Positions 949 through 23,674 are shown, counted from the first letter of the stretch. The stretch: DNA of 64,000 nt from Pseudomonadota bacterium (GCA_043821645.1 JBDRCO010000022.1:1676-65675); one strand, 5' to 3'. The notes: a model not told the origin generated them from the sequence alone. Numbers and translations are program-made.

Positions 949-2499
<1,551 letters not shown>

Positions 2500-5057: not shown

Positions 5058-6221
5058 TCAGTCGGCGCGCGGCATGGCCCGCAACACCACGTCGTCCGCG
5101 AGGTCATGCATGCAGCGGTGGTGCTTCTCGGGACACTGGGCCTGGCCGTGCTCGGAACACGGCCGGCAGGGGAGGTCGACGGTGCAGACTTGAACCTTGT
5201 CGTCGAAGTCGTGGCGGGCAGGATCCGTGGGGCCAAACAGGGCCACGCAGCGCGCCCCCACGGCGCGACCGAGGTGCAGCAGGCCCGTGTCCCCCGCCAC
5301 CACCACGCCGGCCCGGCGCATGATCTCCGCGGCCTGGTCGAGGGTGGTCGCCATGCCATCGAGGATGCGCTCGCCAGCTCGGCTGCGCTCCCGGATCGCC
5401 TGGAGCAGGGGTCGCTCGTGCTCGGCACCGATGACGATGGGGACCTGTCCGCGGTCGAGCAAGGCATCGGCCAGGCGCGCCCAGTGCTGCGTGGGCCAGC
5501 GCTTGGTGGCCCACACCGAACCCGGGGCCAGGGCCACCAGGGAGCCGGAGGTCAGGCCACGGTCGGCCAGCAGATCGGTGACGTGGGTCTTGGCGTCGAC
5601 GCTGGTGCGAAAGCGCGGCTGAGTGACGACGGGGGCTATCCCCAGGGGCTCGAGCAAGCGCAGCAGCTGGCCGGTGAAGGTGGCGCCGCGCTCGTAGGGA
5701 ACGCGATGGGTGAAGGCCAGCCGCGCCAGGGGTCCGGACAGCGGCACGCCGATGCGATCGCCCGCGAAGCCGACGCGCATGAAGAGCTTGGATCGCCAGC
5801 TGAACATGGCGCTGCGCACCGAGCGATGCGGCACCAGCAAGGCCTGGCACTTGAGCGCCTGCAGGCGCGCGAGGACCCTGTCCATGCCACCCAGGCCCTG
5901 GTGGGTGTGGGCCTTGTCATACTCGAGTGCGCCGCTGTAGCCCAGGCCGCGCGCGAGCTGGGCGGGCCCCGGGCGGGCCACCAGCAGCACGTGCGCCTCG
6001 GGCCAGGCACGACGGATGGAGTAGGCAAGCACCGACGTGAACACGATGTCTCCGACGTAGGAGGTATCGAGCACGGCGATGCGCGAGCCCTCCCCACCCA
6101 GTCGGTTGCGCAGGGATTGTTCCTCGGCCAGGGCGCCGGTGGCGACGAGACTGCCTTGCGGTGTCGAGGTCGGGGCCTCGTCCTCGGGCTCGGCTGGATC
6201 GCGGTCGGGATCGGTGCTCAT
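5058..6221 (-). CDS. GT9 family LPS heptosyltransferase-like protein
   Basis: SYVGDIV, APGSVWATKRWP, GDTGLLHL, VALFGPT, C-terminal CRPC...CP...HRCM. Confidence 0.9.
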   Translation of the reverse strand: MSTDPDRDPAEPEDEAPTSTPQGSLVATGALAEEQSLRNRLGGEGSRIAVLDTSYVGDIVFTSVLAYSIRRAWPEAHVLLVARPGPAQLARGLGYSGALEYDKAHTHQGLGGMDRVLARLQALKCQALLVPHRSVRSAMFSWRSKLFMRVGFAGDRIGVPLSGPLARLAFTHRVPYERGATFTGQLLRLLEPLGIAPVVTQPRFRTSVDAKTHVTDLLADRGLTSGSLVALAPGSVWATKRWPTQHWARLADALLDRGQVPIVIGAEHERPLLQAIRERSRAGERILDGMATTLDQAAEIMRRAGVVVAGDTGLLHLGRAVGARCVALFGPTDPARHDFDDKVQVCTVDLPCRPCSEHGQAQCPEKHHRCMHDLADDVVLRAMPRAD

Positions 6222-6248
6222 GGCAAGGGTAGGTGCGGGAGCGCCGGC

Positions 6249-6419
6249 TCACCCGACGGGGGTGGCCTCGTCGATGAGCATGACGGGGATGTCGTCCTCG
6301 ATGCGATAGCTGAGCTTGCACGCATCGCACACCAGAGCGCTCTGGTCCTCGACGAGATGAACCTCTCCCTTGCACTTGGGGCAGGCCAGGATCTGCAACA
6401 GTTCGTCTCGGATCGGCAT
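6249..6419 (-). CDS. Trm112/YcaR-family small protein, 56 aa (not in ORF track)
   Basis: Manual translation MPIRDELLQILACPKCKGEVHLVEDQSALVCDACKLSYRIEDDIPVMLIDEATPVG matches the LACP.CK...L.C...Y.I.DGIPVML pattern. Confidence 0.9.
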   Translation of the reverse strand: MPIRDELLQILACPKCKGEVHLVEDQSALVCDACKLSYRIEDDIPVMLIDEATPVG

Positions 6420-6460
6420 GCGGTCACCTCACTCCATCCGGTTCGCGACCTGCCGTGTGT

Positions 6461-7360
6461 TTACCTCAGCAAGCGGTAGTTGCGGTACTCGAAAAAACGA
6501 TGACCGGTGGCCACCTCGGCGAGATCGAGCAGGTCCTCGCGCAGGTGGCGCCAGCGCAGGCTCCGCGGCCGCGGGGAAAAAGGCCAGTCGCGGGCCGCGA
6601 TCCAGTCATGCATGACCCGGGGGTGCGATCCCTCGAAGCGCCGGACCTTCTCGTCCGCCTCGTAGACGTAGGCCTCGTCGCTGGCCCGTGGCACCAGCAG
6701 GCTCTGGACCTCGTCGTCGGTGCGGTACAAGCGCTCGAAGGCACGGGTCTTGGCCAGCATCTGCTCGGGCGGCCGCACCCACCCGTAGTGAAAGACCCGG
6801 GCACCAGCGTCGAGCACCTGCAGCTTGCGAGGAGCCGGTGGCCCCTGCTCGGGACCGCGGCGAAAGCCCTGGGCGTCCTTCCAGCTGCGCACCCCGCGCC
6901 CACCTTTAAAGGCCCGGATCTCGTGCCTGTACCACCGCCTGGATTGGCCAACACTATGAAAGGACCCGTAAAAGTGGACGTAACGGAACAGCAATCCGTC
7001 GATCTCGGGGCGTGCGTCGGCCCGTGCCATGGCAGCGCGCAGGTCCGGCACATCGTCCTCATGCAGCACCTCATCGGCCTGCAGGTAGATGCACCAGTCT
7101 GCGGCACAGCGCGCCAGGGCCAGGTCTGTTTGCTGGGCCAGCACCTGGCCACCCTGGCGCAGGCTGTCGTCCCACCGGCTCTCGAAGATCTGCAGCCGCC
7201 CGTCGTCGAGAGCGCGGACCCGGGCCAGGGTGTCGTCGTCGGACAGGCCGACGTTTACCACCACCCGCTCGCACAGGCCCAGCAGGGAGCACAGCGAGGC
7301 CTCGAAGGGATAGCCCAGGCGCACCCCGTTGCGCACGAAGGTGAAGCCCCACACACTCAC
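6461..7360 (-). CDS. GT2-like glycosyltransferase
   Basis: GTG start overlaps the upstream TGA; GFTFVRNG...YPF, SDDDT, YLQADE, FHYGWVRPP. Confidence 0.85.
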   Translation of the reverse strand: MSVWGFTFVRNGVRLGYPFEASLCSLLGLCERVVVNVGLSDDDTLARVRALDDGRLQIFESRWDDSLRQGGQVLAQQTDLALARCAADWCIYLQADEVLHEDDVPDLRAAMARADARPEIDGLLFRYVHFYGSFHSVGQSRRWYRHEIRAFKGGRGVRSWKDAQGFRRGPEQGPPAPRKLQVLDAGARVFHYGWVRPPEQMLAKTRAFERLYRTDDEVQSLLVPRASDEAYVYEADEKVRRFEGSHPRVMHDWIAARDWPFSPRPRSLRWRHLREDLLDLAEVATGHRFFEYRNYRLLR

Positions 7361-8433
7361 CGGGACTCCAGGCGACCGAGGAACCCGTCCAGGGCGGTGA
7401 GCAAGATCTCGTGCGCCCGGTCCTCGTCGCTGACATCGACCACCGCGTGGGGAGCTGCCGTCTCGCCCCAGCGCGCCACGGGCATGTTCTTGAACAGCGC
7501 CAGGGTCGGCGCGCCCACGGCGATGGACAGGTGCATGGGTCCGCTGTTGTTGGTCACGGTGCACCCCGCAGCCTCGAGCAGGGCTGCCAGTTCGTGGACG
7601 CTGGTCGGGGGCGCCAGACGCGCGCGGCCCCGCGCCGACATGCAGATCGACGTGGCCAGCTCGCGCTCGCCGGGCCCCCACACCACCACCGGCTGCCGCC
7701 CGTGTTCCAGCAGGACCTGTGCCGCGCCGACGAAGAGCTCGATCGGAACCCGGCGCCAGTCGAGCCGCCCGCCAGGATTGAGCACGGCCCAGCGCCCGGG
7801 CTGTGCCGCCACGTCGTGGAGCAGCGCCGAGAGCTCGGGCCCCACCGCAGCCCGGGGAACAAAACTCATCGGCCTGTCAGCGCCATCGATGCCAAGCGCC
7901 ATCAGCAGCTGCAGGCGCTGGCGCCGCTCGCTCGCCTCCTGAGCGATCGGTGTCACGGCCTGGCTGAAGCAGGCGCTCGCACCGGTGCCGCGCGCGAAAC
8001 CCACGCGCCAGGGTGCGCGGGTCAGCAGGGTGGCGAGGGCGTGCGAGGTGGACAGCAGGGTGTAGTTGCTGCAGTCGATGGCCACGTCAATGCGCGCCCG
8101 CCCCAGGCGCCACAGCGACCGCCAGCTGCTCAGGGTGAAGGGAAAGCCGCGCAGTCCAAAGGGCAACACCTCGTCGACGTCGGGCTGACCCAGGAGCAGG
8201 CTCGCGAGCCCCGGGTGGGTCACCGCGACCAGGGTGGCCCGGGGCAGGGATTCCCGCAGCGCGCCGAACAGGGGGGTCTGCAGCAGCACCTCGCCCAACC
8301 GGCGATCGAAGCGCAGCAGCGCGATCCGCGCCCGCGCCAGGTCCACGTCGTGACGGCGGGGCCGCAGCAGCCAGGCGGCGAGCCGGAACAGCGCGTGCTG
8401 CAGTCGTCCTCCTCGGCCCGTCCACTGCGACAT
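7357..8433 (-). CDS. GT9 family glycosyltransferase
   Basis: RLGEVLLQTP, LNPGG, TNNSGPMHLSIAVGAPTLALF; start could be 8442. Confidence 0.85.
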   Translation of the reverse strand: MSQWTGRGGRLQHALFRLAAWLLRPRRHDVDLARARIALLRFDRRLGEVLLQTPLFGALRESLPRATLVAVTHPGLASLLLGQPDVDEVLPFGLRGFPFTLSSWRSLWRLGRARIDVAIDCSNYTLLSTSHALATLLTRAPWRVGFARGTGASACFSQAVTPIAQEASERRQRLQLLMALGIDGADRPMSFVPRAAVGPELSALLHDVAAQPGRWAVLNPGGRLDWRRVPIELFVGAAQVLLEHGRQPVVVWGPGERELATSICMSARGRARLAPPTSVHELAALLEAAGCTVTNNSGPMHLSIAVGAPTLALFKNMPVARWGETAAPHAVVDVSDEDRAHEILLTALDGFLGRLESR

Positions 8434-8546
8434 GGCGCGCATGCTAGACCGGCCGGGGAACCACCACAATGCGGTGCTGGAGCGCGGACAGGAGCTTGAC
8501 CGAGCGCGACGGCGGACTACACTTCGCCCACCGCAGGAGGTCTCCG

Positions 8547-8990
8547 ATGTTCACGCTTCGCCACCTGTCGATCGTGTCCCTGCTGGCCCTGAGCGCCTGC
8601 GCCCAGGGCGAAGGATCCGTGCTCGAGCAGTACGCAGTGGAACTTCGCGAGAAGATCAACACCTGCCGCGAACTCGACCCGCAGGTCTCCAGCGAGGTCA
8701 TCTTCGTCACGCACCATGGCACACAGGGCGTGTTGCACCTGGGCGGCGAGCTGGCGTTTCCGGTGCGTTTTGGCGACAACAGCATCGAGGGCACGTTTAC
8801 CGAGACCGACCACGCCACGGTGGCCGGACGCCACGTCGTGTGCAAGCGCGTGACCACGATCGAGCTGGTGGTCGAGAACGGGGTGGTCCACGGCACCTAC
8901 GAGCGCCAGCGACGCCAGGAATGCCTGATGGATGCCAAGCCCTGCCAGACCACCTGGACCGTCACCGGCAAGACCCGCGAGGGGAGCTGA
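8547..8990 (+). CDS. Hypothetical lipoprotein
   Basis: AGGAGG RBS; signal MFTLRHLSIVSLLALSAC with lipobox. Confidence 0.75.
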   Translation: MFTLRHLSIVSLLALSACAQGEGSVLEQYAVELREKINTCRELDPQVSSEVIFVTHHGTQGVLHLGGELAFPVRFGDNSIEGTFTETDHATVAGRHVVCKRVTTIELVVENGVVHGTYERQRRQECLMDAKPCQTTWTVTGKTREGS

Positions 8991-8999
8991 GCTCGCGGC

Positions 9000-10082
9000 T
9001 CAGTCCTGCCTGGGTTTGCAGCCGCAGAAGTTGTTCACGTCCTGGGCGTCGCAGCCTATGGAGGTGTAGTCGTCGCCCTGGGTCTGGCGGCAGTGTTCCT
9101 CGCAGGGCACGGCGTCATGGACCTGACCATCGTTGCACACACCGGCAGTGGCCTCGTCGAAGCAGATCACGTCGCCCGGCGTGCACACCGCCACGTCGCC
9201 GATGGCGATGTCGTACTCGCACTGGCACGGGTCCTGGGCGTTGACATCGCAGCCCAGAGAGATCTGGCCCTGGGCCGCACAGGTGTCATCACAGTCCTGG
9301 CGCTGGTAGTCGTAGTCGGCACAGGTGGCCAGGACGTTGCCGCTCTCGCACGCGATGTCGCCAGGCATGCACACGGCCATCACGCCCATCTCGAGGTCGT
9401 ACTGGCACTGGCAGGGGTCGGCCGCGTCGTCGCTGCAGCCCAGCGAGTACGCCGCGGGATCACCGTATTGCGCGTCGCAGTAGGTCTCGCAGTCGACGCT
9501 GTTCATGCTGTAGTCGTCGCCGCACTCGACCAGGGTGGTGTCGTCGGCGCAGTACACGTCGCCCGGGAAACAGGCGGGCATGCCACCGTCGATCATGTCC
9601 TCCTGACACTGGCAGGGGTCGGCCGCATCGATGTCGCAACCCAGGGAGTAGCCCCACTCGCCCGAGGCGGAGAACCGGTCCTCGCAGATCTCGGCGCAGC
9701 TCTGCCGCGTGTACAGATAGTCGTCGCCGCAGGTGGCCAAGGTGTCGGCATCGTCGCAGTGCAGGTCGCCCGGTGAGCACTCGACCATCTCGCCCATGAT
9801 GATGTCGCCGCCGTCGTCGCCGGTGCCACCATCGCCGCCGCCGCCACCGTCCGCGCTGGTGACGACGTCAAAGCGATCCTGGAGCTTGCCCCGGAGGTCC
9901 CCCAGGCAGGCCACCAGACCCAGGCTGATGGCAGCGATGAGCAGGGCGGTGAAGGCGAGGCGCACCGGACCCGGCTTGCGCACACCCTCGTCACCCTCGT
10001 CGTGCCTGGGCGGCCGCACCCCTGGATAGCGTGCACCGCTGTATCGGGCCACGGGGCGAATCTCGAAGGCATTCTTGTTCAT
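9000..10082 (-). CDS. Cys-rich repeat lipoprotein with N-terminal leader-like extension; candidate substrate of the adjacent rSAM
   Basis: GAGG RBS; ~40-aa extension, hydrophobic stretch, LGLVAC lipobox (Cys59), Gly/Asp linker, then four 8-Cys repeats. Confidence 0.85.
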   Translation of the reverse strand: MNKNAFEIRPVARYSGARYPGVRPPRHDEGDEGVRKPGPVRLAFTALLIAAISLGLVACLGDLRGKLQDRFDVVTSADGGGGGDGGTGDDGGDIIMGEMVECSPGDLHCDDADTLATCGDDYLYTRQSCAEICEDRFSASGEWGYSLGCDIDAADPCQCQEDMIDGGMPACFPGDVYCADDTTLVECGDDYSMNSVDCETYCDAQYGDPAAYSLGCSDDAADPCQCQYDLEMGVMAVCMPGDIACESGNVLATCADYDYQRQDCDDTCAAQGQISLGCDVNAQDPCQCEYDIAIGDVAVCTPGDVICFDEATAGVCNDGQVHDAVPCEEHCRQTQGDDYTSIGCDAQDVNNFCGCKPRQD

Positions 10083-10092
10083 GTCCAACCTC

Positions 10093-11214
10093 TCAATCGA
10101 AGTCATAGGCAAAGCGCTCGGCCTGCTCGCGATAGTGCTTCTTGAGAAAACGGGCGTTGCGCTCGTCCCACAGCACATTGCCCAGCTCGTCGGCGATGGG
10201 GATGAGCATGCGCTCGTGGGCACACAGCACCGGCGGCACCCGGGTGACCTGCCCGGTCATCTGCCAGTTGAGGCAACCACAGTAGTTGGAGCAGCGGCCG
10301 AGCAGCGCGCAATCCTGGCACTCCCCGCGCTCGCGCTTGTTCTCAGCAATGAGTTCCTGGCGCCGCGGCGTCAGACCGGTGTCGACGTGGCCGATGCAGT
10401 AGTCCTGGGCGTCGGGGCGGTCGGACACGAGCTGCACGCAGGGGAACACCCGGCCGTCGGGGGCGATGGAGATCTTCTTGGCCCCGAAGTCACACAGCAC
10501 ACCGAGCTCGATGGGCGAGCGAGCATGGCTCTTGAGCTTGTCGTCGAACAGGGACAGGTGGAAGTGGTCCCCGGCGCGAACGCGCTCCAGGTAGAAATCC
10601 GCCAGACGACGGTAGCTGTGCTCCAGTTCCTCGAACAGCTCCGGGGTCCAGCCGGGGTGGGTGTAGTCGAGCTGGTGCACCACGAAGCGCAAGCCACGGC
10701 TCCACATGTAGCGGATCGAGGACTCGAGGCGAGGCACCGTCGGCGGCGTGATCACACTGGTGACGACGGTGTACGGGTTGTGCGCCAGGATGCTGTCGAG
10801 CTTGCTGTCGAGCAACTCCCAGGAACCCGAGCCGTCGGGCAGCACGCGCTGGGCATCGTTCGCCTCGCGATCGCCGTCCAGGGAGATGGCGTAAAGGATG
10901 TTGTGATCGCGACAGAAGGCCAGCTTGTCGTCAGTGAACAGGGTGCCGTTGGTGCTCAGCCTGAAGTGCATGGCGGTGCCCCGGGGCCGCGCCTGCTGTT
11001 CGGCATACAGGGTCAGCTCGCGGATGGCGTCGAAGCACAGCAGCGGCTCGCCGCCGAAGTAGGCCACGCAGGCCGAACCATGGGCCATGCCGAGCACCAG
11101 ATCGATGGCCTTGCGCGCGGTGTCGAGCGACATCGACTCCTTGATCTTGCTCGGCGCGTAGCAGTAACGGCAGCGCAGGTTGCAGCTCTTGGTCAGGTGC
11201 AGCACGGCCTTCAT
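10093..11214 (-). CDS. Radical SAM/SPASM domain protein (peptide/protein maturase type)
   Basis: CNLRCRYC, YFGGEPLL, STNGT, ISLDG; SPASM C-x17-C (CDFG...PDGRVFPC) and CQDC-x5-C-x3-CGC...C. Confidence 0.95.
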   Translation of the reverse strand: MKAVLHLTKSCNLRCRYCYAPSKIKESMSLDTARKAIDLVLGMAHGSACVAYFGGEPLLCFDAIRELTLYAEQQARPRGTAMHFRLSTNGTLFTDDKLAFCRDHNILYAISLDGDREANDAQRVLPDGSGSWELLDSKLDSILAHNPYTVVTSVITPPTVPRLESSIRYMWSRGLRFVVHQLDYTHPGWTPELFEELEHSYRRLADFYLERVRAGDHFHLSLFDDKLKSHARSPIELGVLCDFGAKKISIAPDGRVFPCVQLVSDRPDAQDYCIGHVDTGLTPRRQELIAENKRERGECQDCALLGRCSNYCGCLNWQMTGQVTRVPPVLCAHERMLIPIADELGNVLWDERNARFLKKHYREQAERFAYDFD

Positions 11215-11259
11215 GTCTTGGACCCGTCTCCTGTTCTGGCTGGACGCAGGGTGATGAAC

Positions 11260-11275
11260 AGCAAGCCCCGTGCCG
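11260..11275 (-). promoter_or_regulatory. Putative sigma54 (-24/-12) promoter of the rSAM operon
   Basis: Minus strand CGGCAC-GGGGC-TTGCT, matching YGGCAC-N5-TTGCW, 46 nt upstream of the start codon. Confidence 0.7.
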
Positions 11276-11388
11276 GTGCGTCCCGGGTAGATTCCTCAGT
11301 CATTTCGGGTTCAAGACGAAGGATGGCGGCTGCTGGTCGACAAAAAACTGAGGAGCACGCGACATTCTTGAGAAGGGCTGCCAGGGAG

Positions 11389-12096
11389 TCAGCGCTGCAT
11401 CTGGGCAAGCTGTTGCAGGGTGATGCCACCCTTGAACTCGCCCATCTTGCCGACACTGTCGTCGCCCTCGAGGGTCTCCACCTTGCGCACCCCGGGATAG
11501 AGCCGCTCCGCCTGTTCGGCGCCGAGGGCCTGGATTAGTTCATCGAAGATCTTCTTCAGGGTCTCATCCCAGTCCTTGGTGGCCAGCTCGCGCGCCTTGC
11601 GCGCCTCGAACAGCACAGCGCGCGCCTCGCTCATCTTTTGAGTGGTCTCCTTGAAACCCTGAACGCGGCGCTTGAGCGCCTTGGCGATCTTCTGCTTGAG
11701 CTCGTCGTACTTGGGAGGCAGGAACTTGGTGATGCGCTGCGCCAGTTCGAGGCCTCGCTTCTCGAGCTCCCCCAGGGGCACCTCGGTGAAGTAGTTGGGC
11801 TTGTTCTGCAAGATGGAGCGCTTGACCGGGTGCAGGCCGCTGGTGTCGTCGACGGTCTTGATGAACTCGGCAACCTTGTTCTCGTAGGCTTCCACCCAGT
11901 GATCGCGCATGGCCACGGCCTCCTGCACCGCTCCGGCCGCCGTGTCCAGGGCGTGACAGGCCTGCTGCAGGGCATCGGTGATCGTGGCCACGCGCGTGGC
12001 CTGGGCCTCGAGCTTGCGCATGCGCAGGCGCCCCACCACGTAGTAGCCGTAGCGAAGTTTCTGATCATACTTGGCGGCGATCGGTGGCAGTTCCAT
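11389..12096 (-). CDS. Hypothetical helical/coiled-coil protein
   Basis: GAGGGAG RBS before MELPP; K/E/A-rich with gene-like codon usage; no family recognised. Confidence 0.7.
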   Translation of the reverse strand: MELPPIAAKYDQKLRYGYYVVGRLRMRKLEAQATRVATITDALQQACHALDTAAGAVQEAVAMRDHWVEAYENKVAEFIKTVDDTSGLHPVKRSILQNKPNYFTEVPLGELEKRGLELAQRITKFLPPKYDELKQKIAKALKRRVQGFKETTQKMSEARAVLFEARKARELATKDWDETLKKIFDELIQALGAEQAERLYPGVRKVETLEGDDSVGKMGEFKGGITLQQLAQMQR

Positions 12097-12222
12097 GGCT
12101 CCCTCGGTTGTGTTCATTCTACCCTCTCGTCGCCGGCGTGGCGATGCCTGCGGCGATGGCTTTTGACAGCCGGTCAGGCCACGCGCACAATGCCCGTCCC
12201 CTCGTCGGGGAAGGAGGATGTC

Positions 12223-12645
12223 ATGACGCGTGGTGCCGTCTTCGCCCTGGGGCTGGTGCTGGGTGGATCGCTGCTGGCCGCGCCGGTGAACATGAAACCG
12301 GGCAAGTGGGAGACCACCATCGAGGTTGAGATGCCGGGGATGCCCATGAAGATGCCCCCGATCAAGGCCGTGAGCTGCGCCACCGAGAAAGATCTGGTGC
12401 CCTCGACAGCCCAGAAAGATCAGGACTGCAAGGTTCTCAAGCAGAAGATCACCAACAGCACCGTCGAGTGGACCGTGTCCTGCAAGGACCCCAAGGGCGG
12501 CGTGGCGACGGGCGAGGGCAAGGTGACCTACTCTGGCGACAGCTACCAGGGGCAGATGGTCATGACCATCGGCGGTGGCGCCCAGGGCACCATGAAGATG
12601 CTGTACAAGATGCAGGGCAAGCACCTGGGCGCCTGCGACAAGTAG
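12223..12645 (+). CDS. DUF3617-family exported protein
   Basis: AAGGAGG RBS; signal peptide, MKPGKWE...EMPGMP, C...C...WTVSC...GKHLGAC. Confidence 0.85.
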   Translation: MTRGAVFALGLVLGGSLLAAPVNMKPGKWETTIEVEMPGMPMKMPPIKAVSCATEKDLVPSTAQKDQDCKVLKQKITNSTVEWTVSCKDPKGGVATGEGKVTYSGDSYQGQMVMTIGGGAQGTMKMLYKMQGKHLGACDK

Positions 12646-12657
12646 GCTGGGGCCAAC

Positions 12658-13461
12658 TCAGACGCCGTGGCGTCGCTGGTAGGTCTCGAGGTCCAGGCGG
12701 ACTTGGCTCAGTTCCTGGCGCAAGAGATCGATCTGCAGATCGCGCTGCCTGAGCACATCCTCCATCTCGGCGAGCTGCTTCATCAGCCCCTTCACGTGCT
12801 GCATCAGGCGCTCCGTCTCATCGACGCGGCGGCGACTCGGTGCCTTGACCTCGACCTGGATCTCGACCGGATCCGGGATCAGGGATTCGACCGTGGCGAC
12901 CGACCGGGGTATCGACGGAGTGTCGTGGACAGGCGTCAGAGCCGACAGGGGCAGGGCTTCGATCCGCAGCGAGGCGTCGTGCACCTGGTAATCGACCAGT
13001 CCGGCACTCGATGCGCGCTGAACTGGCGCTGACATGGACCGAGGGGGTGACGACGACAGGGGAGCAGCGACTGGCTGGACCTGCAGCACGGCGGGAGCGA
13101 TCTGGATGGCTTCCACCGCCGGCAGCCCCAGGGCCGCGAGCAGATGGTCGAAGCGTTCACGCTCCGCTGCCGGGACCTTGTTGAAGCGAACCCCCGCCCC
13201 GGGCACCTGGTTTGCAGCCAGGGCGTCCTTGGGCGAGATCGTGCTGACCACCGTGCCGGTCATCTCGATGGCCTGCTTCAGGCCAGGCTGAACCAGTCGA
13301 ACGCGCACCGTCGTGCCGAGCTCGGGTGGCCGGGGTGAGCGAAAGAACAGACCCCCCGCCGAGATGTTCTCGACGATGGCCGAGGACAGCTTCTCGTTGA
13401 GCCACACGTAGGCCGCGATGCCCTGCGCAGGGGCACGTGGGTAGCGCCTCTTGTCAGCCAT
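12658..13461 (-). CDS. PilZ-domain protein with C-terminal coiled coil
   Basis: RRYPR (RxxxR) and NISAGG (D/NxSxxG) c-di-GMP motifs, GAGVRF. Confidence 0.88.
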   Translation of the reverse strand: MADKRRYPRAPAQGIAAYVWLNEKLSSAIVENISAGGLFFRSPRPPELGTTVRVRLVQPGLKQAIEMTGTVVSTISPKDALAANQVPGAGVRFNKVPAAERERFDHLLAALGLPAVEAIQIAPAVLQVQPVAAPLSSSPPRSMSAPVQRASSAGLVDYQVHDASLRIEALPLSALTPVHDTPSIPRSVATVESLIPDPVEIQVEVKAPSRRRVDETERLMQHVKGLMKQLAEMEDVLRQRDLQIDLLRQELSQVRLDLETYQRRHGV

Positions 13462-13518
13462 GCATCCTCGCACCGCTGGACCACTGTCCGCGCGCGCAGT
13501 GTATCCGGTCCCGACCTG

Positions 13519-14985
13519 TCACCATAGTCCCTGGTCCTGCCCCGTCAGCGGAAGGTCTGGCGGTGCCTTCTCCGGCGCCTCGACCGGGGCGGGTGGCTGC
13601 GCTGGCGTGAAGCGGACCGCGCCACCGCTGCACGCCGTCTCCAGCTGCAGGAAGGAAAAGTTCTGCACCCCGAGCTTGTGGCCACGCGCGATGTCGGGTC
13701 GGGCCGCACCACAGTCGCCGCGCCGGACAGCCTGGCCCGCGCGCTCGTACAGCATCGACGACAGGTTGCTGGTGAGAAAACGCGACCAGCGATCCAGCGC
13801 CACACCGCGCTCGAGCACGGCGATGGCCTCGTCGAGGCGCCCGCTGTCATGCAGTCCGAGCGCCCACTTGTTGATCAGGACCGCGCGGTTGTGGATCAGG
13901 CTGCTGGCCTCGGGGTCCTTGAGGATGCCGCGCTGGTAGACGGCCAGGGCCTCCTCGTGACGCCCCGCCGTGGCGTGGGCCGAGGCGAGCTGATCGATGA
14001 CGTAGCACCGGTTGTTGCGAAGCACCTTGCGCGACGAGGCCGGAGCGTCCTCCCAGCCGAGGTCGATCAGGCGCAGGGCGCGCTCCGGATCGCCGCGGTC
14101 CATGGCATCCAGGGCAAGGTTGTTGATGAGCGCGCTCTGGTGGGCACGCAGCTGCAGCGAGCGCTCCCGTTCGGCCAGCCGCCCGCCGCGCTTGAGCAGG
14201 GCGTTGGCCAGTGGAACCTCGCCCCGCGCCACTGCCTCGAGCGCCCGGTTGGAGAGGATCAGGGATACCAGGGTGATGTTGTCTATCTCCGCCGCAGGCA
14301 TCTGCTCGGGCACCTCCTCGTCGCCAGCGAGCGAGGTATGACTGCGCGACAGCCCCCGCTCGAGCAGGAAATCCAGGTAGTTGCGCGATCGACGATCCGG
14401 TGCAAAGCCCTGCGGCGAGGTGGTCTCGATCTCGATGGGACCACGGCCGGTGAACTGCACGGCGTACACGTGCGAGGGGATGACCACGGCCTTGACGATG
14501 AGGTTCACCCGTTCGGCCAGGGTGTTGTACATGACCGTGGCGCTGACGCAGTTGAAGATGTGTTGATGGGCGACCTCGACCAGGGAGCTGGCCGTGGCCC
14601 GGTACTCGCCCAGCAGGCGCCGGTGCAGGGACGCCAGCAAGGCGCGCCCGCGCTGCTCGTCGTCGCGGATGCCGCGCACGTCGTCGACGATGGCGTCGAG
14701 GATGGGCATGAGCTGCATGCGATGGGCACGCAGGGCCTCGGGCTCCACCACCCCCGACGCGATCAGAGCCGCGGTGAGCATGTCGTGGTGCTCGAGGACG
14801 CGATCCTGGGCATCGTCGATGAGGGCCTGCTCGGTGGGCACGATGGGGTAGGCCAGCATGGGGTCGATGTCGGCCGGGTGCTGGGTGCTGGCGCAGCCCG
14901 GGTGCAGCAGCAGTCCCAGTAACATCAGCGCACCGGCAGGACGTCCGGTTCGCGCCTGCCTTGCTTGGTGGACCTGGCTCACCAT
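13519..14985 (-). CDS. TPR-repeat protein with transglutaminase-like domain (start uncertain)
   Basis: FNCVSAT...PSHVY...IETTSPQGF followed by TPR-like helical repeats; possible lipobox HPGC. Confidence 0.7.
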   Translation of the reverse strand: MVSQVHQARQARTGRPAGALMLLGLLLHPGCASTQHPADIDPMLAYPIVPTEQALIDDAQDRVLEHHDMLTAALIASGVVEPEALRAHRMQLMPILDAIVDDVRGIRDDEQRGRALLASLHRRLLGEYRATASSLVEVAHQHIFNCVSATVMYNTLAERVNLIVKAVVIPSHVYAVQFTGRGPIEIETTSPQGFAPDRRSRNYLDFLLERGLSRSHTSLAGDEEVPEQMPAAEIDNITLVSLILSNRALEAVARGEVPLANALLKRGGRLAERERSLQLRAHQSALINNLALDAMDRGDPERALRLIDLGWEDAPASSRKVLRNNRCYVIDQLASAHATAGRHEEALAVYQRGILKDPEASSLIHNRAVLINKWALGLHDSGRLDEAIAVLERGVALDRWSRFLTSNLSSMLYERAGQAVRRGDCGAARPDIARGHKLGVQNFSFLQLETACSGGAVRFTPAQPPAPVEAPEKAPPDLPLTGQDQGLW

Positions 14986-15065
14986 CTCTACCGCCTCGTC
15001 GACACGCGAACTCGTTCGGGGGTGCGCCTGCTTTTCCGTCGCCACGATGCAGGTCGCTGCGTACA

Positions 15066-15497
15066 ATGCTCCCCGTGTTCTACCACGAAAAGCCCCTGCG
15101 GTTTGAGTGTACTGGCTGCGGCGACTGCTGCATTGGCCGGCCCGGCGACTACGTGGCCCTGCGGCCGGGGGAAGCGGACAGGATCGCGGCCTTCCTGGGC
15201 CTGGAACTCGACGCTCTCAAGCAGCAGTTCCTGGTTCGCCTCACCGAACAGGTGCTGGGAGTGCGCCTGCGCGACGAGGGCCCGTGCGTTTTTCTCGACG
15301 ACGCCAAGCGCTGTCGCATCTACCCGGCGCGGCCGCTGCAGTGCCGTACCTACCCGTTCTGGCGAGAGATCCTCATAAGCGAGGACGCCTGGAATGACGA
15401 GCAGAGCCGTTGCGAGGGCATCCACCGCGGGCCCGACCTGGCCGCCGAGGAGGTCGCTGCGACCCTCGCCCTGGATCTGGATTCACCCATGATCTAG
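15066..15497 (+). CDS. YkgJ-family (CxxCxxCC) Zn/Fe-cluster protein
   Basis: LRFECTGCGDCC...CVFL...CRIYPARPLQCRTYPFW...CEGI. Confidence 0.92.
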   Translation: MLPVFYHEKPLRFECTGCGDCCIGRPGDYVALRPGEADRIAAFLGLELDALKQQFLVRLTEQVLGVRLRDEGPCVFLDDAKRCRIYPARPLQCRTYPFWREILISEDAWNDEQSRCEGIHRGPDLAAEEVAATLALDLDSPMI

Positions 15498-23351: not shown

Positions 23352-23674
23352 GCCATCCTCCGCGCGGTCAGCGCGCTGCACACCGACGCAAGCAGCGTGC
23401 CGAGCGCATGCACGAGCACGACAGGCTCGCGTGACCGTCCTGCTTCAGGCTACCAGGCGGACCACCCTCGGGCCCAGGCGGGCGGCAGGACGCGCTGGCA
23501 GGCGCGATCGCGGACTTGTGCACGCCGACGTCGCCGGGCCCCACAGATCCCTCGTGCCGCCGTCACCGGCGCGGGAGTCCGGACAGCTTGGCACAGAACG
23601 TCGCCGCGGCGCCTGGATCGGGACAACTTGTCAGGAGCGGCAGAGCAGGAGGTCGCCCGAGGTGGTCCACCCGT

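Follow-up and report, generated by a model that had tools for sequence, protein, structure and literature searches.

The stretch of DNA analysed here (64,000 nucleotides from a Pseudomonadota bacterium, GCA_043821645.1 JBDRCO010000022.1:1676-65675; hereafter the window) carries on its minus strand a gene for a radical S-adenosylmethionine (SAM) enzyme with a SPASM domain and, directly downstream, a gene for a putative lipoprotein precursor (hereafter the partner). The ATG of the partner lies 10 nt past the stop codon of the enzyme gene and has a GAGAGG ribosome-binding site ahead of it; a sigma-54-type -24/-12 element precedes the pair (Table 1). An initial annotation, made from the sequence alone, had described such an element together with a radical SAM/SPASM gene for 373 aa, followed after 10 nt by one for a 360-aa protein with a leader-like extension, a lipoprotein signal and four repeats of eight Cys, and had taken the lipoprotein for the substrate of the enzyme, modified at repeated sites before export. 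Every one of these elements was confirmed in the sequence, those of the protein also in an alignment of its family. For the relation between enzyme and partner, and for a leader-like role of the extension, the sequence comparisons and the controlled complex model presented below give good support.

Table 1 Features of the gene pair; positions are counted from the first nucleotide of the window.
Feature	Position	Strand	Basis or remark
Radical SAM/SPASM gene, 373 aa	10093..11214	minus	Open reading frame, cluster motifs, Pfam PF04055
Putative lipoprotein precursor gene, 360 aa	9000..10082	minus	Open reading frame, tail, lipobox, Cys repeats
Sigma-54-type -24/-12 element, CGGCAC-N5-TTGCT	11260..11275	minus	45 nt before the ATG of the enzyme gene
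Enzyme C-terminal segment, residues 331-361	10132..10224	minus	Clade-specific motif; predicted docking surface
Partner N-terminal tail, residues 1-24	10011..10082	minus	F6, P10, Y14, Y19, P20 conserved; leader-like tag in the signal-peptide n-region
h-region and lipobox L-V-A-C (Cys59), predicted Lgt/LspA processing site	9906..9968	minus	Read from sequence
Repeat 1, 8 Cys, opening with Gly-centred block and C-S-P-G-D	9594..9800	minus	
Repeat 2, 8 Cys, junction block C-Q-C-Q-E-D-M-I-D-G-G-M-P-A-C-F-P-G-D	9393..9593	minus	
Repeat 3, 8 Cys	9207..9392	minus	
Repeat 4, 8 Cys	9003..9206	minus	

The enzyme and its partner

In the enzyme, the CX3CX2C motif is formed by C11, C15 and C18, all three invariant in 62 homologues, and membership of the radical SAM superfamily is given by PF04055 (53.9 bits, cut-off 29.5). 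The SPASM set (C241, G254, C259, C299, C302, C308, C312, C314, C331) is invariant in the same homologues, and the seven-Cys pattern of the domain is complete (C241-x12-G254-x4-C259, C299-x2-C302-x5-C308-x3-C312, C331); the Pfam SPASM model scored 18.7, under its cut-off of 21.5. The protein starts ten residues ahead of the CX3CX2C motif. As the radical SAM core thus stands directly at the protein start, there is no N-terminal recognition element (RRE) of the kind found in enzymes acting on peptides made by the ribosome and modified after translation (RiPPs).

The best-scoring curated model is NF047865 (PapB; 196.1 bits, cut-off 340), followed by the nif11 maturase (141 bits), CXXX-repeat (139), SCIFF (128), CcpM (128) and QhpD (126) models, none of which reached its cut-off; the top curated models all describe peptide or protein maturases that form Cys thioethers. 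The two models for anaerobic sulfatase-maturating enzymes (anSMEs) remained far below threshold (TIGR03942, 75.1 bits, cut-off 349; NF010321, 55.8 bits, cut-off 441). In databases, relatives of the enzyme are named only 'radical SAM protein', and the view of the initial annotation that this is not a characterised family holds insofar as no NCBIfam or Pfam model assigns enzyme or partner to a family at cut-off. Judged by its sequence, the enzyme is a PapB-related radical SAM/SPASM protein without an RRE, placed outside the PapB family both by score and by the tree described below.

The partner is strongly acidic, with 51 Asp in the 301 residues after Cys59, and contains 33 Cys in all. Its hydrophobic segment is preceded by an N-terminal extension of about 35-40 residues. 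The signal region runs R-K-P-G-P-V-R, a 17-residue hydrophobic stretch and L-V-A-C59, by which the protein is classed as a predicted lipoprotein precursor; a Gly/Asp-rich linker then leads into four repeats, each 62-69 residues long and containing eight Cys, which start at C102, C171, C238 and C300 and open with C-x-P-G-D. A search of 5.8 billion sequences returned a family of 29 proteins, all hypothetical and all from Myxococcota or 'Deltaproteobacteria' assemblies. Two parts of the family alignment are conserved: the extreme N-terminus, F.V.PV..Y.GARYP (hereafter the tail), together with the lipobox, and two to six 8-Cys repeats. The five tail residues listed in Table 1 are nearly invariant, Cys59 is invariant (29/29), and the tail pattern was matched at the extreme N-terminus of 26 of the 29 members. 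An internal GTG start, which would give an ordinary short signal peptide, was considered and ruled out by this conservation; the ATG is taken as the true start for the same reason. Searches of Pfam and NCBIfam gave no match to the partner at E <= 0.01; when eight partners of other loci were searched at E <= 1, no meaningful match came up.

In the AlphaFold2 model of the partner, the repeats are predicted with high confidence (pLDDT, the predicted score of the local distance difference test, > 90) to form small beta-beta-beta-alpha-beta units, with linkers of low confidence between them (junctions 164-167, 232-235 and 293-297; pLDDT < 50), and residues 39-76 are helical. Foldseek returned nothing at E <= 0.001, either for the whole model, where a wide search was dominated by matches to the long signal-peptide helix, or for a single repeat. 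When a single repeat was compared with representative PDB chains, the best matches were CBM14-type modules, namely 4zce_B (Z 3.4, root-mean-square deviation (rmsd) 2.2, 42 residues aligned), 6so0 (Z 3.3, rmsd 3.8, 50 aligned) and three further chains (Z 2.2-2.7), all far under a trustworthy Z. The CBM14 or peritrophin-A chitin-binding module, a small disulfide-rich beta fold with six Cys, is thus no more than a lead for the repeat, and weak or absent matches are no proof of a new fold. A protein atlas held only unnamed Myxococcota clusters, with scores of at most 0.87.

Recurrence of tail and enzyme across genomes

When a 17-column profile of the tail was run against the six-frame translation of the genome of the window, a single open reading frame (ORF) stood out, that of the partner (27.0 bits; next best 10.8). 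The genome also encodes one radical SAM enzyme of this clade (second-best match, E 1.3e-8) and one protein with this repeat. The gene of this one enzyme and that of the one protein with tail and repeat lie side by side, which supports their pairing.

Only two close orthologues were found in a locus scan with the enzyme alignment. The orthologous loci with enough flanking sequence, L002 and L094, have the gene order of the window; in L094 the enzyme is 64% identical and the gene directly downstream encodes both the tail (27.4 bits) and the Cys-rich part (320 bits by profile). In a broader set, the 80 metagenome loci lie outside the training of the profiles and are the sole independent set; in 44 of these 80, a partner that bears the tail or belongs to a widespread type termed 'major' lies on the same strand beside the enzyme gene.

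In a tree of 157 radical SAM enzymes, an 82-row clade (local support 97) contains all rows with a 'major' partner (50/50), all with a Cys-rich partner (3/3) and 7 of the 8 labelled 'tail-only'. A partner is thus recorded by hidden Markov model (HMM) for 60 of the 82 rows, and for 78 when the 18 judged by eye are added. The 26-row outgroup, in which a true PapB (L084, 428.6 bits) and a nif11-type enzyme are included, has no such partner. Two rows left over in the clade, L105 and L115, show no visible partner, their sequence ending at or just past the enzyme gene. By its low anSME model score the enzyme of the window does not group with anSMEs or cofactor-synthesis enzymes, and in the tree it falls in a clade separate from PapB and nif11-type enzymes; its homologues adjoin proteins with the same tail, not unrelated genes. 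Neither of these two outcomes, by which the initial annotation would have been refuted, was observed. In this conserved adjacency the initial annotation's idea of a dedicated partner finds its support.

Loci with a partner are spread over at least nine phyla (Myxococcota, Krumholzibacteriota, Planctomycetota, Acidobacteriota, Bacteroidota, Lentisphaerota, Kiritimatiellota, Verrucomicrobiota, Bacillota), and the protein that follows the tail, its cargo, is of several types: Cys-rich repeats in the window, L002 and L094; in L013, whose enzyme is 57% identical, an Asp-rich protein whose mature part lacks Cys; the widespread 'major' family (H-G-x-G-R-G-A-x-G-C ... P-P-V-F-L-S-E-E-E-A, C-terminal W.K.QG.I); Bacteroidota types; and short lipoprotein-like tandem ORFs in Akkermansia. 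Since the mature domains differ, the tail is the element that the partners have in common.

Several loci showed departures from this plan. In Akkermansia (L042, 3350..3950; L044, 1045..1510), the enzyme homologue is preceded upstream by two or three short ORFs in tandem (47-77 codons). The product of each has a degenerate form of the tail (M-K-I-x-P ... [LF]-Y-P), then a lipobox-bearing signal peptide and only 16-50 residues past the Cys, and resembles a lipopeptide precursor. Two tandem tail-bearing partner genes per enzyme gene were seen in L015 (2112..3992), L023 (1617..4500) and L029 (1..4000). A twin-arginine-like R-R-x-F stands between the Y-P tail and the lipobox in L004 (873..1424) and L038 (3522..), which suggests, from sequence, twin-arginine translocation (Tat) instead of Sec export for some partners. 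In L020 (2798..4023) the partner is split over two frames, one encoding the tail and the second the 'major' domain, and in L033 (4001..5119) a stop codon lies inside the enzyme match; each may be a broken copy or an assembly error. In L093, at the place where the partner is expected, a different and very Cys-rich convergent ORF (1183..1503, minus strand) with many C-C and C-x-C pairs was found.

Predicted docking of the tail and candidate modification sites

Behind the last SPASM Cys, enzymes of the clade carry a C-terminal segment with the consensus HE..L.PIAD..G..LW...N..F..KHY. The motif is present in 50 of 57 enzymes with a partner, in 30 of 57 other in-clade rows and in none of 25 outgroup rows. 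Fibrobacter enzymes end after its first half, and their lipoprotein-like neighbours are without the Y-P tail.

The enzyme, on a 62-row alignment and together with SAM and three clusters, was modelled in complex with residues 1-42 of the tail, for which the alignment had 29 rows. All three runs scored 0.88, against 0.00 for the best of the controls, three in number. In calibration, 58 of 80 solved complexes attained this mark, as did 2 of 110 mismatched pairs; the present model differs from that calibration in its custom alignments and in the small molecules included. At least 70% of the contacts agreed between runs, and the pLDDT of the partner was at least 56. In the model, tail residues 5-24 lie on enzyme residues 298-304, 326-349 and 361, and also on 189, 191 and 230-234; Y19 packs on residues 342-349 and H230. 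The model supports, as a prediction, binding of the tail to the C-terminal helix and SPASM domain, and because this surface lies away from SAM, the tail looks like a docking element and not like the substrate site. The leader-like extension of the initial annotation is in this way backed by family conservation, by recurrence on other partners and by the complex model.

Two motifs of the partner were compared as candidate sites of a modification. In the 62 non-first repeats of the family, C-x-P-G-D is well kept: position +2 is Pro in 59, position +3 is Gly in 56 and position +4 is Asp or Glu in 59; first repeats have the acid at +4 in 14 of 28. A search of 1.84 billion representatives with a single-repeat profile gave 116 proteins, 48 of them scored as tail-bearing, all with complete N-termini; most of the strong tail-less matches were fragments starting inside a repeat. 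Among the weaker matches are tail-less relatives (within P0203-P0252), a lipoprotein family of about 205 aa and two large Cys-rich proteins (972 and 1176 aa), whose signal peptides are short and of the ordinary kind. The lipoproteins of about 205 aa have three distantly related 8-Cys repeats (G-D-P-C-R-T ...). C-x-P-G-[DE] occurs in 12 of 20 members of this family and in 6 and 7 copies in the two large proteins; shared with tail-less relatives, it is probably a structural turn within the fold.

The Gly-centred motifs to which the initial annotation had pointed proved specific to tail-bearing proteins. At the repeat junctions of these proteins stands the block C-x-C-x-Y-D-h-h-x-G-[DE]-h-x-x-C; its Gly-centred motif was counted 58 times in the 48 proteins with a tail and 8 times in 26 without, the latter equal to the genome background of 0.10 per 100 residues, and C-x-C-x-[YF]-[DG] 70 times against 6. 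Non-first repeats have Gly at -5 from the first Cys in 62 of 62 and Asp at -9 in 51 of 62. The blocks coincide with the flexible, low-confidence linkers of the AlphaFold2 model. A similar motif, h-h-(x)-G-[DE]-h...P, was found 19 times in other tail-bearing cargo against 4.7 expected, a number reached in none of 2000 composition-preserving shuffles; it is present in 9 of 13 proteins, in some without a nearby Cys. On this comparison of sequences the Gly-centred junction blocks are most likely better candidate sites than C-x-P-G-D. By homology, the leading candidate chemistry is a thioether from Cys to Asp or Glu; Cys-free cargo in related systems makes another reaction possible (epimerisation, another cross-link).

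The proposed module, its setting and its meaning

A sigma-54-dependent promoter for the pair is plausible from sequence. Sigma-54 (rpoN) is encoded in the genome of the window; L002 (enzyme 68% identical; other family, same phylum) has a perfect TGGCAC-N5-TTGCT 13 nt before the ATG, and L094 has TGGCCC-N5-TTGCC 18 nt before the start codon of the enzyme. Among loci L001-L092, the strict core in the correct place was found in the window and L002 only; in L093, 50 nt of upstream sequence could be inspected for the element. Other exact matches to GGCAC-N5-TTGC in the window lie at 13202..13215 (plus strand) and 23388..23401 (minus strand).

The ten ORFs flanking the pair (5058..15497) match GT9, Trm112, GT2, GT9, DUF3617, PilZ, TPR and CxxCxxCC, two being without Pfam match (8469..8990 and 11389..12624). 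By Pfam, none of the ten is a sulfatase, protease, transporter or quinohemoprotein gene, as had been stated in the initial annotation. Adjoining the pair is an envelope-sugar gene run (5058..8469, minus strand): a GT9 heptosyltransferase-like gene, a Trm112-like zinc ribbon, a weak GT2 match and a second GT9. The ORF at 8469..8990 (plus strand, 173 aa) is convergent with the partner gene; if started at an internal Met, its product would have a short signal of lipoprotein type with a lipobox-like A-C at the end. The ORF at 11389..12624 (minus strand) lies immediately upstream of the promoter element and is not kept beside the pair in L002.

From these data the pair may be read as a two-gene module, probably sigma-54-dependent, made up of an RRE-less PapB-related enzyme and its own lipoprotein-precursor substrate. 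The docking motif F.V.PV..Y.GARYP would be carried in the lengthened n-region of the signal peptide. In the cytoplasm, before the precursor has folded, the tail would bind the C-terminal helix and SPASM domain of the enzyme, a contact that would replace the leader/RRE contact of RiPP systems, and the enzyme would then modify the chain downstream of the tail, most likely at the Gly-centred junction blocks. Sec export would follow, and lipoprotein processing at Cys59 would cut off tail and signal peptide together, so that no dedicated protease or exporter would be needed nearby. On balance we hold it to be probable, by a modest degree, that a tail-docked enzyme modifies its lipoprotein partner before export; the modification itself, its site, its chemistry and the order of the steps are deduced from sequence and models.

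A wider form of this proposal is possible but doubtful. It holds that a large RRE-less clade, spread over at least nine phyla and including gut Akkermansia, uses a tag in Sec/lipoprotein signal peptides (some Tat-like) as its leader, and that the change made at the h-h-x-G-[DE] motifs is not a thioether but, for example, an epimerisation or a new cross-link that would harden exposed linkers.

A number of results weigh against the tail-docked module. The clearest one against a strict pairing rule is L093, the closest metagenome orthologue (70% identical), in which no same-strand ORF is present in the 331 nt downstream, with 50 nt of sequence available upstream; in L121 a partner was looked for beside the enzyme gene and none was seen. 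The tail profile had been trained on 16 and the 'major' profile on 10 genome loci, for which the count of 19 partners in 20 is at least partly circular, and the variant tail in 18 of the 22 unlabelled clade rows was called by eye, which is subjective. The window has 3 copies of the core of the promoter element where 1.1 would be expected; 7 of 100 shuffles reach 3, so that the element alone is near chance, and before the related L013 gene no sigma-54-type element was found. The Gly-centred motif is missing in 4 of the 13 proteins with other cargo, and its enrichment there counts kin, the L135-L146 proteins being closely related. The partner types do not share any single Cys position, the sole Cys of L101 being residue 247. 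Eight Cys per repeat is an even number that fits four disulfides and leaves none spare for a thioether. In the complex model, which covers residues 1-42 of the partner, the tail occupies the SPASM/C-terminal surface and not the active site.

Different sites or chemistries were weighed as alternatives. That, as in a literal reading of the initial annotation, the Cys of every C-x-P-G-D is linked in PapB-like manner to the Asp four residues on (C-X3-D), giving four or more thioether rings before export, is unlikely. This spacing is that of the native PapA motif CSANDA (PMC12715619), CrpA of another system has C-X-X-Q/D (PMC13692751), PapB is the best-scoring curated model, and the motif is well conserved in non-first repeats; however, its presence in tail-less relatives is explained by a P-G turn in the fold, half of the first repeats are without the acid at +4 (14/28 have it), one Cys used per repeat would leave seven, and other cargo with the same tail has repeats without Cys.

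A single modification near the mature N-terminus or in the signal peptide, such as a thioether from Cys59 to the acid in C-L-G-D, or one within the tail, with the repeats unmodified, is less likely again. It would suit L014, L016, L021, L023, L119, L130, L132 and L134, in which the sole Cys is at a lipobox-like position, and the short Akkermansia ORFs, in which only the lipobox-like Cys is present; moreover, of the 29 family members, 27 have an acid within five residues past the Cys, whereas the share among lipoprotein-like N-termini of the genome is 60% (191 of 317). This enrichment over background is modest, however; L019, L024, L031, L069, L100, L101 and L109 have no lipobox Cys, a thioether at Cys59 would block diacylglyceryl transfer, and the tail was modelled on the SPASM/C-terminal surface, not beside SAM.

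It is very improbable that enzyme and partner are merely co-transcribed, with the tail serving another role (membrane targeting, regulation) and the enzyme acting elsewhere. The missing downstream partner of L093 would agree with this, but the pairing is kept over at least nine phyla while the cargo changes, tail and C-terminal enzyme motif co-occur, and the complex score stands well clear of the best control. Least credible is an anSME-like oxidation of Cys in C-x-P context to formylglycine, giving aldehydes on the exported protein: the sulfatase motif (C/S)-x-(P/A)-x-R likewise has Cys with Pro at +2, and anSMEs also act before export on signal-peptide-bearing proteins, but the anSME model scores are far too low, the +4 residue is acidic and not Arg, no sulfatase gene is among the ten flanking ORFs and C-x-P-G-D occurs in tail-less relatives as well.

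The tail-docked module can be set beside known systems. The anSMEs are SPASM radical SAM enzymes whose substrates, sulfatases that bear signal peptides, are modified in the cytoplasm prior to export and have no protease or transporter dedicated to them; recognition is at the modified motif itself and is not known to use a signal-peptide tag. The window pair differs from them in model scores and in the lack of a nearby sulfatase. QhpD is a SPASM radical SAM enzyme forming Cys-Asp/Glu thioethers in QhpC, a leader-bearing subunit that is then exported. Its model, TIGR03906, is among the top models of the enzyme (125.8 bits), but the cut-off of 453 was not reached, and no qhp genes, dedicated peptidase or ABC exporter are near the window pair.

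PapB, which acts on PapA to give the ranthipeptide freyrasin, shares with the enzyme the radical SAM and full SPASM architecture and the top curated score, and the C-X3-D spacing of PapA is that of C-x-P-G-D in the partner (PMC12715619). The RRE of PapB comprises residues 1-86 (PMC12715619), and PapB can work without its leader in vitro. The enzyme of the window differs in having no RRE, in its separate clade and in its own C-terminal helix motif, and its partner, a 360-aa protein and predicted exported lipoprotein, differs from the short peptide PapA.

For RiPP-like chemistry on a protein, as conceived in the initial annotation, a direct precedent is given by CrpC of Methanococcus voltae (2026), for which the installation of ranthionine cross-links on the 28.8-kDa Cys-rich protein CrpA was shown experimentally (PMC13692751). 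Alike are the SPASM radical SAM enzyme and the large Cys-rich repeat protein beside it with its leader-like N-terminus; CrpC differs in being archaeal and having an RRE, the CrpA repeat is unrelated (17 residues, C-X-X-Q/D), and no signal peptide or lipobox of CrpA is described in the available part of that paper, whereas both are predicted for the window partner. The CrpC model TIGR04463 scored 49.8 bits (cut-off 525) on the enzyme of the window; of the marks of this enzyme type (model score, RRE, adjacent Cys-rich protein), only the last is shared.

Bufferins and other RiPPs modified by multinuclear non-heme iron-dependent oxidative (MNIO) enzymes have precursors with Sec signal peptides and not classical leaders, some of them protein-sized; about 16% of Buf2 bufferins have lipoprotein signal peptides, and the signal peptide is proposed by the authors to be part of the recognition sequence (PMC12452194). 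The modifying enzyme there is an MNIO with a partner protein, not a radical SAM enzyme, and the available part of the paper describes no conserved N-terminal extension of the signal peptide.

Already known, then, are protein-sized SPASM substrates (anSME, QhpD, CrpC) and RiPP precursors with signal peptides (MNIO). New here are the enzyme clade, the tag in an extended n-region, its predicted reader in a C-terminal helix, and the breadth of cargo and taxa. Searches of the literature gave no description of a radical SAM enzyme reading a lipoprotein signal-peptide tag; Supplemental Data set 1 of PMC13692751, on bacterial Cys-rich proteins associated with radical SAM enzymes, could include the family.

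If the tail-docked module is true, RiPP-type radical SAM enzymes would have a third means of substrate recognition, after the RRE-read leader and core-only recognition: a tag built into the signal peptide of the exported protein and read by the C-terminal helix of the enzyme, by virtue of which the two-gene unit would manage without protease and transporter. A class of protein-sized secreted substrates would be added to the single case shown by experiment, CrpA, and tail and C-terminal motif together would give a simple sequence rule for finding hundreds of pairs, some of them in gut bacteria. Should the wider form, with a tag as leader and a change other than a thioether, be true, general signal-peptide processing would take the place of RiPP protease and exporter, and RiPP-type radical chemistry would be routine in the maturation of exported proteins.

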